64,000 nt of DNA from Patescibacteria group bacterium (lineage in GTDB: Bacteria; Patescibacteriota; Patescibacteriia; JAXHNJ01), in the NCBI GenBank assembly GCA_043812155.1, contig JBDRMK010000017.1:146509-210508 (forward strand). The letters are read 5' to 3'. Of this stretch, positions 11,130 through 18,984 are shown piece by piece; position 1 is the first letter of the stretch; each line of letters begins with the position of its first letter. The notes below the pieces were generated by a model. The model saw only the letters and a program-made list of their open reading frames with translations. It ran no database searches and had not been told where the DNA came from. The position numbers were made by a program, and so were the translations under genes.

Positions 11130-11159
11130 GGGGGATCCTTCGGGATTCCCCCATTTTTT
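11130..11159 (+). terminator. strong hairpin terminator with UUCG loop
   Basis: GGGGGATCC-TTCG-GGATTCCCCC followed by T6 on the plus strand. Abuts the stop of the minus-strand GT39 gene. Confidence 0.5.
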
Positions 11160-12435
11160 ATTTAACAATAGAAAACCAACTCGGCAGCCAGGCTCTTAAA
11201 TTTAAGGTGTCTTGCGAGATTTCTTGTCCGGTCAAAACCGGCCAGAAAAAAATAAAGGAAAAAAACACTAGCAAAAGATATCCGGTGATAATGACTTTAT
11301 TCCTTTTATTTTTCTGCCAGTGATCATTCAGGAGATAAATAAATATCAGCCATAAAAAAGGCGCCGCCGGAAGAAAATGATAAAGGAAAAGAGAACGTTT
11401 GATAAAAATAAAAGGCAGAAAATGAGTAAGGAAAATCAATAGAAGAAGATTTATTTTTCTGTCCCTGAACAAATATTTTTTTATCGCGTAAAGGGCGCCG
11501 ACAAGACTCGGCCACCAAACTAATGGATTGCCTAGCTCAACTATCACTTTGATCTTATTCCCGGCTTTTTCAAAAAAATATGGGAAAGGCTGAATATCCA
11601 AAGGCCAGCTCCAAAAAGGAGAACCGTAAGTATGGACTTCCGTGATATTTTCGTGATAAGTGAGAATTTTATAATTTTCATACCAGGTGATGGCTTTGGT
11701 GGCGGTTAAACCGTAATGAATCTGCCAGACGAGAAAATATAAAGAAAAAGGAATGACAATGAAATAAAGAATGAAATAATACCCTGGTAGCCGAATATTC
11801 GGCAAAAAATTTATTATATTTTTTAACGCGGTATTCTGCCACCATTGAGTCTGATTAAGCCACAAAATTAAAATTGGCCCCAAACCGGCTAAGGCCAACC
11901 ACTTAGTGGAAATACTTAAGCCAAAAAATATCCCGGCCAATATTAGAAATAGATGCGCTTTTTTGAAAGTATTACTGCCCAGAAAACAAAAAAACAGGAG
12001 ATAAGCCAGTAAAATAAAGAAGGAGTAAATAACGTCCAGGCGCGCCATTCTAGACTGGACTAAAAACAAACCGTCAAAAAGAAAAAATAAGGAGAAAATC
12101 AGAGGGATAAAATAATTTTTAAAAATTTTCCTGGCCAGCAAATACGCGAGGGGAATCAATAAACTGCCGAATAAAGCGGTAAAAAAACGCCAGCCGAAAG
12201 GCGTGTCGCCAAAAATCTTCATTCCTGAAGCGATGAAGAACTTGCCTAAAGGCGGATGAACATCATGGTAAAAAGTATGGCTTAAATAATGGCGGCCGAA
12301 ATCCACAAAATAATGCTCGTCGGAAACGATTTTCGGAGGCGTGTCTAATTGGTAAAAACGGGTAAATAGCGCGACAAGCGTCAGCGCCAAGATCAATATT
12401 AGATCCCATTTATGATTTTTTAGGCTCATGAACAC
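11158..12435 (-). CDS. GT39 / PMT-family glycosyltransferase (phospholipid-carrier-dependent, ArnT/PMT-like)
   Basis: N-terminal DEHYF and HPPLGK motifs typical of protein O-mannosyltransferase-like enzymes, about 11 TM helices. Confidence 0.8.
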   Translation of the reverse strand: MFMSLKNHKWDLILILALTLVALFTRFYQLDTPPKIVSDEHYFVDFGRHYLSHTFYHDVHPPLGKFFIASGMKIFGDTPFGWRFFTALFGSLLIPLAYLLARKIFKNYFIPLIFSLFFLFDGLFLVQSRMARLDVIYSFFILLAYLLFFCFLGSNTFKKAHLFLILAGIFFGLSISTKWLALAGLGPILILWLNQTQWWQNTALKNIINFLPNIRLPGYYFILYFIVIPFSLYFLVWQIHYGLTATKAITWYENYKILTYHENITEVHTYGSPFWSWPLDIQPFPYFFEKAGNKIKVIVELGNPLVWWPSLVGALYAIKKYLFRDRKINLLLLIFLTHFLPFIFIKRSLFLYHFLPAAPFLWLIFIYLLNDHWQKNKRNKVIITGYLLLVFFSFIFFWPVLTGQEISQDTLNLRAWLPSWFSIVK

Positions 12436-12559: not shown

Positions 12560-14245
12560 ATGAGCGAAGAAAAGAAAAATTTCAATCAATTTGCCGCGGA
12601 ATTCCAAGATAAATCCCGGCCGGCCCGGGCCTACGGCCGGAATTATAACGCCGAAAAACCCCTGCGGAATAATATAAAAGAGCTTATTGTCGCTTTGCGC
12701 AAGAACAGATATTCAGACTGGCAGGACCCCAAAATCCCGAAAATCCATGTTTCTTCCACGATTTCCCGCATGGCTTTTTTATACGAAAAAATCCGGGTGG
12801 CCATTGATTATAAAGACGAGCATCTCTTGCGGAAAAACGCCATTGAAAGGATCCTGAAACGCTGGCTTTTAGAAGGAAAGATCGAAACTTTTGATATCCG
12901 GACTTTGATCATGGAGCTGGTCCGGGGCGGCTATTTAAAAAACGACAGCGTGCCGGAAAATGTCGTTTTTGAAGTTAAGCAGATTTTGGAAAAATACTTG
13001 AATTTAATGAAACAAAGCTCGTTCCTGAAAAAAGGCGAAGAACGCTACGCCTTAAACGAATGGATCCTAAGCCTGCTTTCGGTGGAAATTGAAAATCATT
13101 TTTTTCCGGCTTATGAAGACCAGGCCTTGATCGAATACGCTTATTCTCTCCTGCACGATAAGGTGGCCGTTTCCGAGGAAGACACCGACGAAAAAACGAA
13201 GAACACCCAGCTGTATATCGCCATACAGCGGGCGGTCATGAAGTCAGACGACGCCTTGATCCGCTACGGTCTTTTTAAGCTGTATTATCCCGACTGGGAA
13301 ACCACTGATTATTCCCTCGTAACAGAGATAGCCGGCCATATCGATGCATTAAAAATAACCATTGAAAATCAAATAAATCATCCGATCGGCGGTCTTATTT
13401 ACCGGCAGGTGAAAAAATATATCATTCTTCTGCAAATCCTCAAAGACATCATCAAGGAAAATCCGAGCCGGGCCGAAGAAATATTAAGCAATCCGAATCT
13501 CTTGCAGGAAAAAATCGTCAAGGCCTGCGAGATACGGTATAAAAAAGCGCGGACAAAATTAAGCCGCAGTACTTTCCGCTCCGTTATTTATATTTTGCTA
13601 ACTAAGACCGTTCTCGCTTTTGTCTTGGAACTGCCTTATGATGTTTTGATCTACAATACGGTGCACCTGACCGCCTTGATCACCAATATCGTCTTTCACC
13701 CCTTGCTGCTTATTTTTATCGCCGCTAATATATATATTCCCGCCAAGAAAAACACGGAAAAAGTGGTCGAGGCCATCCGCGGCATGATCTATGCCGACGA
13801 AAAAGAATTCATCTTCGCCATTTTCAAAAAACCGATCAAAAGAAGAAAAGGCTGGAATTTCGTTTTCAATCTCCTTTATCTGTTTGTTTTCACTATTTCC
13901 TTCGGAGCGATCATTTATGTCCTGCGCCGGTTTGAATTCAACGCCGCCAGCATCTTCCTCTTTCTCCTTTTCCTGTGCGTGGTCAGTTTTTTCGGCATCA
14001 AGAACCGCGAAACCATGCGCGAACTGATAATCATCGACAAAAAAAGAGGCTTTATCGGCTCACTGCTTGATTTCTTCACTCTGCCGATCATCCGGATGGG
14101 CCGCTGGCTTTCGGTCAAAGCGCCGAAGATCAATGTTTTCACTTTTGTCCTTGATTTTATCGTAGAGGCGCCGTTTAAAATTTTCGTGGAAGTGCTGGAC
14201 GAATGGATGAACTTCATTAAAGAGAAAAAAGAGGAAATCTACTAA
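12560..14245 (+). CDS. hypothetical protein: soluble N-terminal domain + C-terminal multi-TM domain
   Basis: 561-aa ORF with no recognised motif. Divergent from the GT39 gene. Confidence 0.55.
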   Translation: MSEEKKNFNQFAAEFQDKSRPARAYGRNYNAEKPLRNNIKELIVALRKNRYSDWQDPKIPKIHVSSTISRMAFLYEKIRVAIDYKDEHLLRKNAIERILKRWLLEGKIETFDIRTLIMELVRGGYLKNDSVPENVVFEVKQILEKYLNLMKQSSFLKKGEERYALNEWILSLLSVEIENHFFPAYEDQALIEYAYSLLHDKVAVSEEDTDEKTKNTQLYIAIQRAVMKSDDALIRYGLFKLYYPDWETTDYSLVTEIAGHIDALKITIENQINHPIGGLIYRQVKKYIILLQILKDIIKENPSRAEEILSNPNLLQEKIVKACEIRYKKARTKLSRSTFRSVIYILLTKTVLAFVLELPYDVLIYNTVHLTALITNIVFHPLLLIFIAANIYIPAKKNTEKVVEAIRGMIYADEKEFIFAIFKKPIKRRKGWNFVFNLLYLFVFTISFGAIIYVLRRFEFNAASIFLFLLFLCVVSFFGIKNRETMRELIIIDKKRGFIGSLLDFFTLPIIRMGRWLSVKAPKINVFTFVLDFIVEAPFKIFVEVLDEWMNFIKEKKEEIY

Positions 14246-14394
14246 GTTATCGGTAATACACCGCAATTAAGGAAAAATCAGCGGTTTTTTGTTTACATAT
14301 TTTCCTGATGAGTTATAATAAAAAATAGGGTAATGCTAATATATGCGTCAAAAAACTCCTTTAAATAATTTTATTATTAAAAAGGAAAAAAATT

Positions 14395-15402
14395 ATGGGC
14401 AGAAAATTAATCAGTATTATCGCGACGGTTATTGTTTCCGTGCTGGTCGGCTCAGGAATAGTTTATGCGGCTTCGGTGCGTAACATTACCACGACTTTAG
14501 GCGGAGTGGCCGGCGACTATTTTAATCTGGACGGGATACTAACGGTCAGCACGCTGAAAGTCGGCAGCCAAGGAGTAGGCGGCGTCACTTTTTTCAACGG
14601 CTCGATCGTGAACAACACGACAACGGCAGGCTTAGACAATCCGGTTACTTTCGGCGACAACGTGAGAATTGACGGCCGTATTTACCGCGGAGCGACGGCC
14701 GGACCTGGCGACACAATGCCCTTTATTGTCAATGATGATATGGAAATCAAGGGCAATTTAACTCTCAGCACGGGAAAAACGCTCGACTTATCCGGCGTAA
14801 CTGTCAGCGGTTTAGATAATTTTGCCGATCTCGGCCAAGCGGAAACGATTACGGCCAACTGGGTCAATACTCAAAATCCCTGGTCTTCGGCTGAGATCGC
14901 TGATATTACTCGAAGAGTCGCTTTGCCCTTGGCCAGTTTCTATTCGGATGCAGACGGCACCCCTGCCGCCATCACCACGACCACCGTGCCGAATCTCGCC
15001 TATACCGCCAATCAAGGCTTGTCTCTGGTTTACTCGGCCACGGAAACCACGGATATCGGGACGCAATTTACCGTGCCATCCGATTACGTTTCGGGCGGCA
15101 TTTTCAAAGTGTTGGTTGATACCTCCGCTATCCTTGTCGCAGATTTAAATCTTGATTTTAAGGTAGCCATTTCCCAAACGACAGACACAACCGCCTGGGA
15201 TACGGACATGGATGATGAGGATCCGGTTGATATTACCGGCACGGCCGGCACGCCAAAAATCGTCACTCTTACTCCGACCGACCAAACTGACATATCCGCC
15301 GGCGACACGATTTTTTTAGACTTGTTTCCTGATACTTACGGAGCGGCCGAGCCGGATTTGGAAATCTACGCCGTGTGGTTTGAATATACCGCTGTGCAGT
15401 AA
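14395..15402 (+). CDS. Thr/Asn-rich secreted surface protein, paralog A
   Basis: N-terminal signal anchor, then a 130-aa domain shared with the next gene (GVTFFNGSIVNNTTTAGLDNPVTFGDNVRIDGRIYRG identical), divergent C-terminus. RBS present. Confidence 0.7.
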   Translation: MGRKLISIIATVIVSVLVGSGIVYAASVRNITTTLGGVAGDYFNLDGILTVSTLKVGSQGVGGVTFFNGSIVNNTTTAGLDNPVTFGDNVRIDGRIYRGATAGPGDTMPFIVNDDMEIKGNLTLSTGKTLDLSGVTVSGLDNFADLGQAETITANWVNTQNPWSSAEIADITRRVALPLASFYSDADGTPAAITTTTVPNLAYTANQGLSLVYSATETTDIGTQFTVPSDYVSGGIFKVLVDTSAILVADLNLDFKVAISQTTDTTAWDTDMDDEDPVDITGTAGTPKIVTLTPTDQTDISAGDTIFLDLFPDTYGAAEPDLEIYAVWFEYTAVQ

Positions 15403-15421
15403 AAAATTAGGTTTAAATAAG

Positions 15422-15460
15422 AACAATCTTTAGGTCTTCGGGCTTAAAGATTGTTTTTTT
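15422..15460 (+). terminator. rho-independent terminator between the paralogs
   Basis: 11-bp stem AACAATCTTTA/TAAAGATTGTT followed by T7. Confidence 0.7.
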
Positions 15461-15516
15461 ATCACGATTATTATACAATGTAATCAATATAAACTTATTA
15501 TTAAGGAGGAAATAAA

Positions 15517-16284
15517 ATGAAAAAAATTTTAAGTGTCATTATCACGATCTTTGTCTCAGTTCTTATCGCCTCGGGAGTAGTCTATGCCGCCACGCGCAAC
15601 ATTACGGCCACCTTAGGCGGCGCTTCCGGCGACACTTTCCAGCTTTCCGGCGTTATGACGGTTAATTCCTTAAAAGTCGGGGCCCAAGGCACGGGCGGAG
15701 TCACTTTTTTCAACGGCTCGATCGTGAACAACACGACAACGGCAGGCTTAGACAATCCGGTCACTTTCGGCGACAACGTGAGAATTGACGGCCGTATTTA
15801 CCGCGGAGCAATCGCGGGGACAAGCGATACTCTGCCGGTAATCATTAACGATAATCTGGAAGTGGCCGGCGCCATTTCTGCCAGCAGCTTAACTGTTAAC
15901 GGAGTTTCTGTCGGCACGAAAAAAACCTATGAAGGCACTATCGATCTTACGAGCAGCGGCGATGAAATCGTCAGTATAGATACAGGCAATACTTGTTCAC
16001 CGGACACCAATACCAAATATTACAAATATCATTATAAAAAAATAGCCATCCCGGAAATTTCGGTCAGCAACCTCCCTAACCTCCGCGCCTACTGCCACGC
16101 CCACGCCGACAGCGGAATGGCCACAATGCTTCCTAATAGCCGAGACGTTTGGGTCGGCTGCAGTTTATATTACGCCGAAGGTTATGGTTATTTACTCTAC
16201 AAATACGAAAGCGAAACCTGCGCCGGCAGCGTCTCCTCGACTTACTATTACCTCGACGGACAATATAAAATTATTATTTATTAA
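15517..16284 (+). CDS. Thr/Asn-rich secreted surface protein, paralog B
   Basis: Same N-terminal domain as 14395, different C-terminal half. RBS AAGGAGG. Confidence 0.7.
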   Translation: MKKILSVIITIFVSVLIASGVVYAATRNITATLGGASGDTFQLSGVMTVNSLKVGAQGTGGVTFFNGSIVNNTTTAGLDNPVTFGDNVRIDGRIYRGAIAGTSDTLPVIINDNLEVAGAISASSLTVNGVSVGTKKTYEGTIDLTSSGDEIVSIDTGNTCSPDTNTKYYKYHYKKIAIPEISVSNLPNLRAYCHAHADSGMATMLPNSRDVWVGCSLYYAEGYGYLLYKYESETCAGSVSSTYYYLDGQYKIIIY

Positions 16285-16314
16285 TAAAATATTCGTTTAG
16301 AAAAGGTCATTGCC

Positions 16315-16344
16315 TTGACAGCTGTTAAGAATTGCTGGTATAAT
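16315..16344 (+). promoter_or_regulatory. sigma70-like promoter for pilT (TTGACA-18-TATAAT)
   Basis: Consensus -35 and -10 hexamers read directly from the sequence. Confidence 0.5.
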
Positions 16345-16425
16345 ATATTTATGATTTTTAATTATTATAAATAATAATATTTGACGCTTGGTTTTTTTAA
16401 GCCAGGCGTTTTTAGGAGAAAAAAT

Positions 16426-17469
16426 ATGCTTAAAATTGACGATTTATTCAAAGAAGCGGTAAAAAGAGAGGCCTCCGACCTACATCTTATCGCCAATATG
16501 CCTCCGATATTAAGAATTGACGGGGAGCTGAAAAAACTTAATGAGTATCCGGTCCTAAGAACAAAAGACGTGGAGGATCTCTGCTACAGTATTATCTCCC
16601 CTAAACTCAAGGATACCCTGATCAATGACCGGGAATTGGATGTCTCTTACGAAATAAAAGATGTTTCCCGCTTCCGCGTTAACATGCTCTGGGAAAAAAA
16701 TTGTTTGAGTATGGTCGCCCGCGTCATTTCCACTAAAATCCCGACTATGGAAGAACTGAAGATGCCGAATATCGTTTATGAACTGATCCGGCTTAAACAG
16801 GGTTTGATCCTGGTCACCGGCCCCACCGGCTGCGGCAAATCCACTTCGCTGGCCGCCATGATCAACCTGATCAATAACGAAAGAACCTCCCATATCGTCA
16901 CCTTAGAAGACCCGATTGAATTTATTTTCTCGCCCATCAAGTGCATCATCCGGCAAAGGCAGCTCGGTTCGGACATGACGACTTTCGGCCAAGGCTTAAA
17001 GCATGTCTTGCGCCAGGACCCGAACGTGATCATGGTCGGCGAAATGCGCGACCTGGAAACCATCGCCTCCACTATCACTCTCGCCGAAACCGGACACTTG
17101 GTCCTGGCGACATTGCACACCTTAAACGCCGCCCAGACCATTGACCGTATCATTGACGTGTTCCCTCCTTACCAGCAATCCCAGGTGCGGCTGCAAATTT
17201 CTCTGTTCTTGAAAGGCATTATCTCCCAGACCCTTCTGCCGAAAGTGACCGGCGGCCGCATCGCCGCCCGCGAAGTCCTGATCAACACGCCGGCCATCTC
17301 CAATCTTATCCGCGAAAATAAGATCGCCCAGATAAAGACCGCCATCCAGACCAGCGCCGAGGAAGGAATGTTCACTATGGACCAGGATGTCAAAACCCTT
17401 TATGAGAAAAAATTGATCAGTGAGACCATCGCCTTAACGCACATGGTTAATCCGGAAATGCTAAAATAA
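16426..17469 (+). CDS. pilT: type IV pilus retraction ATPase PilT
   Basis: Walker A GPTGCGKST, Asp box, His box and the PilT-specific C-terminal region. Start at the internal ATG with RBS AGGAGA. Confidence 0.9.
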   Translation: MLKIDDLFKEAVKREASDLHLIANMPPILRIDGELKKLNEYPVLRTKDVEDLCYSIISPKLKDTLINDRELDVSYEIKDVSRFRVNMLWEKNCLSMVARVISTKIPTMEELKMPNIVYELIRLKQGLILVTGPTGCGKSTSLAAMINLINNERTSHIVTLEDPIEFIFSPIKCIIRQRQLGSDMTTFGQGLKHVLRQDPNVIMVGEMRDLETIASTITLAETGHLVLATLHTLNAAQTIDRIIDVFPPYQQSQVRLQISLFLKGIISQTLLPKVTGGRIAAREVLINTPAISNLIRENKIAQIKTAIQTSAEEGMFTMDQDVKTLYEKKLISETIALTHMVNPEMLK

Positions 17470-17475
17470 TTAATT

Positions 17476-18432
17476 ATGGTGGACGTTAAACTCATAAAAA
17501 ATATCCCTGTTTTTGCCGGCCTTTCCCCGGAAGAGCTTAATTCGCTTGCTTCCCTCTGTTTGCTTAAAAAAATGGCGGTCGGACAAAAACTTTTTAAGGC
17601 CGGCGAAGGCCGCAAGAATTTTTATGTTATCCTTTCCGGCAAATTAAAGATTTACCGCCTGCTTAAAGACGAACAAGAAGTTATTGCCTATATGGACAAA
17701 GATAATTTTGCCGTGGAAAGCGCCTTGGTCGACCCCGGATTAAAACACACTCATTTCGGCGAAGTCATGGAGAAAGGGGAGATCTTGGAAATGAAAGGCA
17801 GTGATTTTCTTAACTTGTCAAAGAATAACCTCCGCCTGGGAAATAAAATTTACGGCAATATCGTGAATAACCTGACGGAACGGCTGCACCACGCCAACAA
17901 CAAGCTCGTGACCGTATATTCCACCGGCAAGATCGCTTCTACTTACGCCAATATCTATAACTTATTGCCTCTGCTTTTGGAAACAATTCTTTCAGTCATT
18001 AAAGCAAAAAAAGCCTTTTTCGCCCTTTTTAAACCTTTTGAAAATAAAACCGTCATCCAGGAAGCGATCGGTTTCAGCAACAATCAAGCAATAAAAAATT
18101 TGAACTTGGGGCTGCGCGGCGAGCCTTTTTTGGGAAAAATTTTTGAAAACGGGGAAGATATCTTTGTTACCAGTGAGGAAGCGAAAAAAAACAAAGAATA
18201 TAAATTGCCCTATCTGGGCGAGAATGCTCTTGCCGTAAAGATCCAAACCGGACAAAAAATCCTTGGCGCGATTGTTCTGGTGGATAAAAAAGAGGAAGAC
18301 TTTAATTTCAACAATCAAATTCTTCTTAATATAATCTCCCGGCAGATCGCTACCGCTCTCCAGACCGCGGAAAAAACCGAAGACCAAAGCTCACATGAAG
18401 AGCTGAAAAGAGTATATATCAAGCCCTATTAA
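17476..18432 (+). CDS. cyclic-nucleotide-binding (Crp-like cNMP) + GAF domain protein
   Basis: N-terminal cNMP-binding beta-barrel pattern (FKAGEGRKNFYVILSGKLKIY), C-terminal GAF-like region. Starts 7 nt after the pilT stop. Confidence 0.6.
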   Translation: MVDVKLIKNIPVFAGLSPEELNSLASLCLLKKMAVGQKLFKAGEGRKNFYVILSGKLKIYRLLKDEQEVIAYMDKDNFAVESALVDPGLKHTHFGEVMEKGEILEMKGSDFLNLSKNNLRLGNKIYGNIVNNLTERLHHANNKLVTVYSTGKIASTYANIYNLLPLLLETILSVIKAKKAFFALFKPFENKTVIQEAIGFSNNQAIKNLNLGLRGEPFLGKIFENGEDIFVTSEEAKKNKEYKLPYLGENALAVKIQTGQKILGAIVLVDKKEEDFNFNNQILLNIISRQIATALQTAEKTEDQSSHEELKRVYIKPY

Positions 18433-18803: not shown

Positions 18804-18877
18804 GGGCGCATAGCTCAGCTGGTTAGAGCACCTGCCTCTTAAGCAGGGTGTCGGGGGTTCGAATCCCTCTGCGCTCA
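18804..18877 (+). tRNA. tRNA-Lys (anticodon CTT), no encoded CCA
   Basis: Manual cloverleaf: acceptor GGGCGCA/TGCGCTC, anticodon loop CTCTTAA, T-arm GGGGGTTCGAATCCCTC. Confidence 0.8.
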
Positions 18878-18917
18878 CTTTTAAAAACAGAGCATAAGCA
18901 TTATTAAGAAAAAATTA

Positions 18918-18984
18918 GGGGGTTCGCTTGCCCGCCGTAGTCTCCCGAAGGGAGACGAAGGCGGAAATCCCTCTGCGCTCACCA
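18918..18984 (+). other. tRNA-trailer element: copy of the tRNA-Lys T-stem and acceptor 3' strand with a hairpin in the T-loop, ending in CCA
   Basis: GGGGGTTCG, then CCGCC-GTA-GTCTCCC-GAA-GGGAGAC-GAA-GGCGG, then AAATCCCTCTGCGCTCACCA. The last 16 nt before CCA are identical to the tRNA-Lys 3' end. Confidence 0.55.

Follow-up and report, generated by a model that had tools for sequence, protein, structure and literature searches.

Genes A and B form a tandem pair of same-strand paralogues in a 64,000-nucleotide (nt) stretch of contig JBDRMK010000017.1 from a Patescibacteria metagenome-assembled genome (MAG); this whole stretch is referred to here as the window. The question raised by the locus is why two genes that are otherwise well diverged should be almost identical over some 110 nt, and whether this reflects a recent exchange between the copies, selection on the nucleotide sequence, an assembly error or a system for varying surface proteins. 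The first-pass annotation had read the block as a sign of ongoing gene conversion or recombination and also as a substrate for deletion or inversion switching of variable C-termini. We propose that the tract is very probably the product of a recent ectopic gene conversion between the two tandem paralogues, a reading that is supported by the excess of synonymous identity, by the divergence of the same columns in other genomes and by phylogenetic incongruence with the closest orthologue of gene A.

The shared tract and its synonymous sites

When the genes are aligned in frame at a spacing of 1116 nt (372 codons), the copies in genes A and B (14584-14693 and 15700-15809, in direct orientation on the + strand) match at 109 of 110 bases. 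The sole internal mismatch, T at 14646 and C at 15762, is silent (GTT/GTC, valine in both), and the longest exact run is 62 nt. No other copy of this 62-mer exists in the window, and 100 shuffles produced no match. The tract is delimited on either side by a mismatch (14583 and 14694), in each case a silent change at a third codon position. Beyond these the same-register identity falls to 65% in the left flank (14478-14583) and to 56% in the right flank (14695-14760), and past approximately codon 135 the genes are unalignable, at a background level of about 35-45% nucleotide identity. The near-identical block with one silent T/C difference, the diverged flanks and the unrelated C-terminal halves described in the first-pass annotation were therefore all confirmed, with coordinates that differ by a few bases from those first given (14587-14690 and 15706-15810), which still fall on the tract; the C-terminal halves also belong to different head clusters, as described below.

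The tract covers the protein core that is best conserved in the family, GGVTFFNG(S/T)I.N.TT....NPVTFGDNVRIDG..YRG, and its identity at the amino acid level is for this reason unremarkable. The synonymous sites are more informative. The 36 aligned tract codons comprise 35 that are identical, one synonymous difference and no nonsynonymous difference, whereas the N-terminal module (N-module) outside the tract has 18 identical, 29 synonymous and 32 nonsynonymous codons. Among codons for the same amino acid, identity is thus 35/36 in the tract against 18/47 (0.38) in the flanks (binomial P = 5.8e-14). The same hidden Markov model columns were compared in 2,550 usable pairs, drawn from 98 family genes at 79 loci of species-representative genomes. 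The block columns had a median nucleotide identity of 67% between genomes and 72% within genomes, and the fraction of identical codons given an identical amino acid was 0.36-0.44. The pair in the window, with 99% identity in the block and 64% in the flanks, is an extreme outlier in this set; the one pair that lies above it (100% and 100%) is a trivial case, one sequence that was placed in two bins. Constraint on the amino acid sequence fails to explain the tract, because synonymous sites match in excess and the same columns diverge elsewhere.

One explanation for such identity is selection on the nucleotide sequence itself, imposed by an RNA structure, a binding site or extreme codon constraint, and the coincidence of the tract with the best-conserved protein segment of the family would fit this. 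However, synonymous sites in these columns have diverged to an ordinary degree in every other pair, including the comparison of gene A with its own orthologue (75% nucleotide identity). The RNA fold predicted for the tract was no better than that of shuffled sequences (z = +0.8). A scan of 14000-16600 against Rfam gave no credible match; up to E = 1 the scan returned a single match, which lay upstream of gene A (14285-14338), far below the threshold of its family and outside both tract copies. Selection of this kind is extremely improbable, and a functional element at the nucleotide level was ruled out by the family-wide codon comparison, the RNA fold and the Rfam scan.

Comparison with orthologues further supports gene conversion. 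The closest orthologue of gene A, in the related sequence L001, is 84% identical at the amino acid level and 79% at the nucleotide level. Gene A matches this orthologue at 83% of nucleotides in the N-module outside the tract and at 75% inside it, whereas it matches gene B at 64% in the N-module flanks and at 99% inside the tract. The two regions are therefore phylogenetically incongruent: the tract groups A with its paralogue B, and the flanks group A with the L001 orthologue. Since the copies differ at one position in 110 nt against a divergence of approximately 21% from L001, the exchange would postdate the split from L001 by a wide margin. In the synonymous comparison, codon identity between A and the L001 orthologue is 45% in the block and 56% in the rest of the gene. 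This leans towards B as donor and A as recipient, although the difference is not significant (Fisher p = 0.27). In L001 the contig breaks off just where the conserved block of its own gene B begins. A closer orthologue of gene B was not found, and searches of JGI metagenome contigs with exact patterns (a 32-mer of the tract and a 26-mer of the left flank in gene B) returned no match.

We propose that a non-reciprocal homologous exchange copied approximately 110 nt of the N-module from one tandem paralogue onto the other. The invariant core of the N-module would offer the longest runs of nucleotide identity between the paralogues, and repair of a break in one copy could be templated by its paralogue, which lies on the same strand at a distance of 1.1 kb. 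Such repair would leave a short contiguous tract of identity, and the mechanism was presumably of the RecA type. As essentially no amino acid was changed, the exchange is best regarded as a by-product of paralogy and not as a mechanism of variation.

Contiguous conversion tracts between bacterial paralogues have been documented for the tuf genes of Salmonella (PMC5485169), and concerted evolution has been described for rRNA operons and other genes (PMC8022953; PMC6053082). Genes A and B resemble Salmonella tufA/tufB and the rRNA operons in having a contiguous identity tract with diverged flanks that would arise by a non-reciprocal, homology-dependent process (PMC5485169; PMC8022953; PMC6053082). 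They differ in that identity outside the tract is only about 64%, the N-terminal third alone is common to both and the tract is just 110 nt long; the tuf and rRNA copies are near-identical over their full length, whereas the A/B module is only weakly homogenized. The process is most probably ordinary ectopic gene conversion, which is already known, and the main residual interest of the locus lies in an uncharacterized family of modular proteins.

Several points weigh against conversion. This genome is represented by a single assembly (protein clusters P0001 and P0068 have one member each), and the tract is without an independent replicate. The comparison of A orthologues between the block and the rest of the gene, on which any assignment of donor and recipient would be based, is not significant (p = 0.27). 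Identity between the paralogues before the event was probably about 75%, a level at which recombination is expected to be rare. Finally, in the four genomes that carry both types, the within-genome identity of the A and B N-modules is only 2-12 points above the mean cross-genome A/B value. A single MAG assembly with no replicate would also be compatible with an artefact of assembly or polishing, for example mis-mapped reads that homogenized the two copies, and the contigs of relatives do tend to break inside these paralogues (that of L001 where the gene B block begins, that of L003 within the second paralogue). However, final k-mers and reads typically exceed 110 nt, and assemblers should resolve a repeat of this length and not homogenize it. 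The tract has clean, in-frame ends and retains one internal difference, and comparable tracts occur in independent assemblies, including that of a complete chromosome. We consider an artefact very unlikely.

Modules of the protein family and tracts elsewhere

The gene A protein is an exact match to ABIH38_03480, encoded on a 212,565-bp contig of the Patescibacteria MAG. It consists of a hydrophobic N-terminal helix, the N-module (approximately residues 28-118) and a beta-sandwich head of a type here called A (approximately 170-335). The gene B protein has the same N-terminal helix and N-module, followed by a Cys-containing beta-sandwich head of type B (approximately 135-255). Both N-termini have a charged start and then a hydrophobic helix of about 20 residues ending in VYA-A; residues 2-27 were modelled as a helix by AlphaFold2, and from its sequence this element is likely to be a signal peptide or a membrane anchor. 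The N-module, of about 90 to about 115 residues, is the only homology common to the paralogues and its core is the best-conserved part of the whole family. In the AlphaFold2 monomer model it had no regular secondary structure and was of moderate confidence (predicted local distance difference test, 10-residue block means 54-80).

In 246 family members, the sequences that follow the N-module clustered into 112 heads like that of P0100 (ABIH38_03400, encoded on the same contig), 86 like that of A, 34 like that of B and a few minor types, with the A and B heads in separate clusters. The head of gene A had no sequence match in Pfam, NCBIfam or PDB. Its modelled fold is a beta-sandwich jelly-roll that matches carbohydrate-binding modules (CBM6/35/36) and galactose-binding-like folds at sequence identities of 6-13%, and it is predicted to be carbohydrate-binding-module-like or lectin-like. 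Some weak fold matches of the heads were to phage fibre and baseplate proteins.

The NCBI name of gene B, 'polymer-forming cytoskeletal protein', is probably a misannotation. Searches of Pfam, NCBIfam and PDB sequences gave nothing usable for assigning A or B to a family beyond a match of Bactofilin (PF04519) to gene B residues 82-148. The NCBI name goes back to this weak match, which scored 22.7 bits, under the gathering cut-off of 27.9; gene A had no Bactofilin match. Gene B was rejected as a bactofilin on account of this score and of the signal- or anchor-like helix, which is at odds with a cytoskeletal protein. An extracytoplasmic role fits better, given the hydrophobic helix and the predicted carbohydrate-binding-module-like head. 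We infer that family members are secreted or membrane-anchored, with a surface location and a ligand-binding role for the heads. The family is found mostly in Kerfeldbacteria-like Patescibacteria genomes, and its homologues have no precomputed Pfam domain and are named 'hypothetical' or 'polymer-forming cytoskeletal' by NCBI. A literature search found no paper on this family or on gene conversion in Patescibacteria.

Exact shared tracts of at least 40 nt were present in 5 of 91 within-genome pairs and in 3 of 4,662 between-genome pairs; two of the five within-genome cases are at contig ends and may be assembly-graph overlaps. One solid case is a tandem pair in L022 (2941-4870), on the complete Candidatus Kerfeldbacteria chromosome CP181398. 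Here the N-modules are 85-100% identical over approximately 450 nt, including 69 nt without a mismatch at the 5' end, and identity falls abruptly to about 35% where the unrelated heads begin. In this independent genome, either a longer stretch has been homogenized or a head has been replaced. The other solid case, the pair L060/L027, has 93-100% identity over the first 120 nt or so. Tracts in other genomes thus occupy N-module positions different from that of the A/B tract. A second tandem pair of the family lies outside the window on the same contig as A and B and comprises P0100 and P0105 (ABIH38_03405), of which one has a head of the third type and the other a B-type head. At the protein level these two have one difference in their first 45 residues, and P0100 has an exact 19-residue stretch, AGTSDTLPVIINDNLEVAG, in common with gene B.

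Long-term concerted evolution of the whole N-module was considered as an explanation for this pattern and rejected, as the within-genome excess of 2-12 points noted above is only weak. The family pattern points to episodic conversions, each short and local, rather than to concerted evolution sustained over time.

Two further observations were made on relatives of the locus. In L083 (4092-4912), the B-like gene that lies beside the A orthologue is split into open reading frames (ORFs) of 172 and 101 amino acids, probably through a frameshift or because it is a pseudogene, and the gene order is B-A, the opposite of the A-B order in the window. The contigs of relatives stop inside the second paralogue at 4900-5094 in L001 and at 11173-11570 in L003, which suggests that the module shared by the family breaks short-read assemblies.

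Transcription signals, neighbouring genes and the possibility of programmed variation

Genes A and B each have an ATG start codon, a Shine-Dalgarno sequence (AGGAGG at approximately 15504-15509 ahead of gene B), a signal- or anchor-like helix and a promoter-like site (Table 1). An intrinsic terminator is predicted between them, which implies that they are separate transcription units.

Table 1. Coordinates in the window of genes A and B, the shared tract, candidate transcription signals and neighbouring genes.
Feature	Position	Strand	Remarks
Gene A	14395-15402	+	335 aa; ABIH38_03480, NCBI 'hypothetical protein', Patescibacteria MAG
Gene B	15517-16284	+	255 aa; NCBI 'polymer-forming cytoskeletal protein'
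Probable conversion tract, gene A copy	14584-14693	+	Codons 64-100, encodes VTFFNGSIVNNTTTAGLDNPVTFGDNVRIDGRIYRG; 109/110 against 15700-15809
Probable conversion tract, gene B copy	15700-15809	+	109/110 against 14584-14693; codon test
Promoter-like site before gene A	14292-14319	+	TTTACA-16-TATAAT, 11/12; consensus match only
Intrinsic-terminator hairpin between A and B (predicted)	15419-15465	+	18-bp stem, 4-nt loop, U-run; -20.6 kcal/mol, z = -4.7 against shuffles
Weak promoter-like site before gene B	15472-15501	+	TATACA-18-TATTAT, 9/12 consensus match
PMT-family glycosyltransferase (protein mannosyltransferase-like)	11158-12435	-	Neighbour
561-aa membrane protein	12560-14245	+	Neighbour; no family match
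PilT-like T2SSE ATPase	16427-17469		Immediately downstream of gene B
cNMP-binding/GAF protein	17476-18432		After the PilT-like ATPase

Further neighbours of the pair are two tRNAs and pyruvate phosphate dikinase (PPDK). The PMT-family gene, which is two genes upstream of gene A, and the gene for the 561-aa membrane protein are syntenic with gene A in L001 (447-3529). Motifs resembling sequons and rich in Thr (NGS, NNTTT) are encoded within the conserved block, and on this basis the A/B paralogues may be substrates for glycosylation. A perfect sigma-70 consensus with a TG extension (TTGACA-18-TATAAT) is present at 16315-16344, ahead of the PilT-like ATPase, and the start codon of this gene is likely to be the ATG at 16427, which follows AGGAG, and not the TTG at 16381 chosen by the ORF finder. 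A 34-nt copy (76%) of the 3' end of tRNA-Lys(CTT) (18845-18878) is located at 18949-18982, approximately 70 nt downstream of that tRNA, and could be the remnant of an old integration site.

Another possibility for the locus is that it is a programmed variation system, in which the repeat serves as a deletion or inversion switch or in which the heads are varied antigenically as cassettes. Minimal homology requirements for RecA-dependent recombination are satisfied by a 62-nt exact run or by 110 nt at 99% identity, so that the repeat is long enough. A deletion between the copies would be in frame (1116 is a multiple of 3) and would yield a hybrid of approximately 257 amino acids, with the promoter and first 63 codons of A on the B head. 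The heads are predicted to resemble ligand-binding surface domains, N-module variants and head types are mixed across the family, and in L084 a B-type gene directly follows the gene for the 561-aa membrane protein with no A gene between. However, the repeats are direct, which makes inversion impossible, and no recombinase, invertase or reverse-transcriptase domain was present among the 14 other ORFs scanned at 961-25320 of the window. Both genes look complete, with start codon, Shine-Dalgarno sequence, promoter-like site and a terminator between them, and neither has the appearance of a silent cassette. Within the exchanged tract, which is part of the invariant region, no amino acid has changed; as the segment is the invariant core and not the variable head, the exchange homogenizes rather than diversifies. 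Finally, an A::B deletion would be irreversible, a one-way loss of the A head and not a switch. Taken together, a programmed system is very improbable here. Inversion switching and antigenic or phase variation, as suggested in the first-pass annotation, were not borne out. Its proposal of a deletion substrate stands to the extent that a RecA-type in-frame deletion is physically possible, and fails as a switch.

The gene after the membrane-protein orthologue in L084 (3-965) and L085, P0121, is of B type and 64% identical to B, and its N-module looks mosaic. The P0121 locus could be either the product of an A::B deletion or an ancestral single-gene state. It was rejected as evidence for a deletion hybrid, as the 'A-like' GPGD motif that it carries is not specific to A: GPGD and GT.D are mixed over the head types, with counts of 33 and 16 for A heads and 7 and 10 for B heads. 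A template/variable repeat like that of a diversity-generating retroelement was also rejected; the single T/C difference is not adenine-specific, the block is invariant and no reverse-transcriptase domain was found among the scanned ORFs.

The established cassette systems, pilE/pilS of Neisseria, vlsE of Borrelia and tprK of Treponema, combine one expressed gene with silent cassettes that lack promoters, and it is the variable region that conversion replaces. Genes A and B resemble them in the probable conversion between related surface-protein sequences and in a conserved segment that may act as a homology anchor. In contrast to these systems, A and B both look complete and separately transcribed, and the converted segment is the invariant part.

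Possible head exchange and the biology of the family

If the locus is not a switch, the N-module might still have a wider role in recombination. One proposal is that it acts as a family-wide recombination handle through which ligand-binding heads are exchanged between paralogues and possibly between genomes. If so, the tract, the N-module/head breakpoints of L022 and of L060/L027, and the varied pairings of N-module variants with heads across the family would be the footprints of ongoing head shuffling. The mosaicism of the family sequences suggests that heads have been swapped; as a general account of the family, we regard such a handle as unlikely. If it were true, head shuffling would tune the attachment specificity of an episymbiotic bacterium, much as the exchange of tail-fibre tips does in phages.

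Phage receptor-binding proteins have a conserved N-terminal attachment part and an exchangeable C-terminal head. The likeness to the A/B family lies in the conserved N-module joined to unrelated C-terminal beta-sandwich heads (three main types here), the abrupt drop in identity at the module boundary in L022 and the weak fold matches to fibre and baseplate proteins. However, the A/B genes are chromosomal, their products have an N-terminal hydrophobic helix and their context (PMT glycosyltransferase, PilT ATPase, tRNAs and PPDK) is not that of a phage. The relationship to modular receptor-binding proteins would thus appear to be one of resemblance and not of membership.

The tract in A and B, which we attribute to gene conversion, matters little when taken alone, being a textbook conversion footprint with no amino acid change. 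The locus does flag an uncharacterized, multi-copy family of modular and apparently secreted proteins in Kerfeldbacteria-like Patescibacteria, and it indicates that homologous recombination between diverged paralogues operates in these reduced genomes. The shared module also offers an explanation for the breaks in relatives' assemblies inside these genes. If the heads mediate attachment to a host or substrate, these bacteria could plausibly arrive at new combinations through recombination in the shared module.

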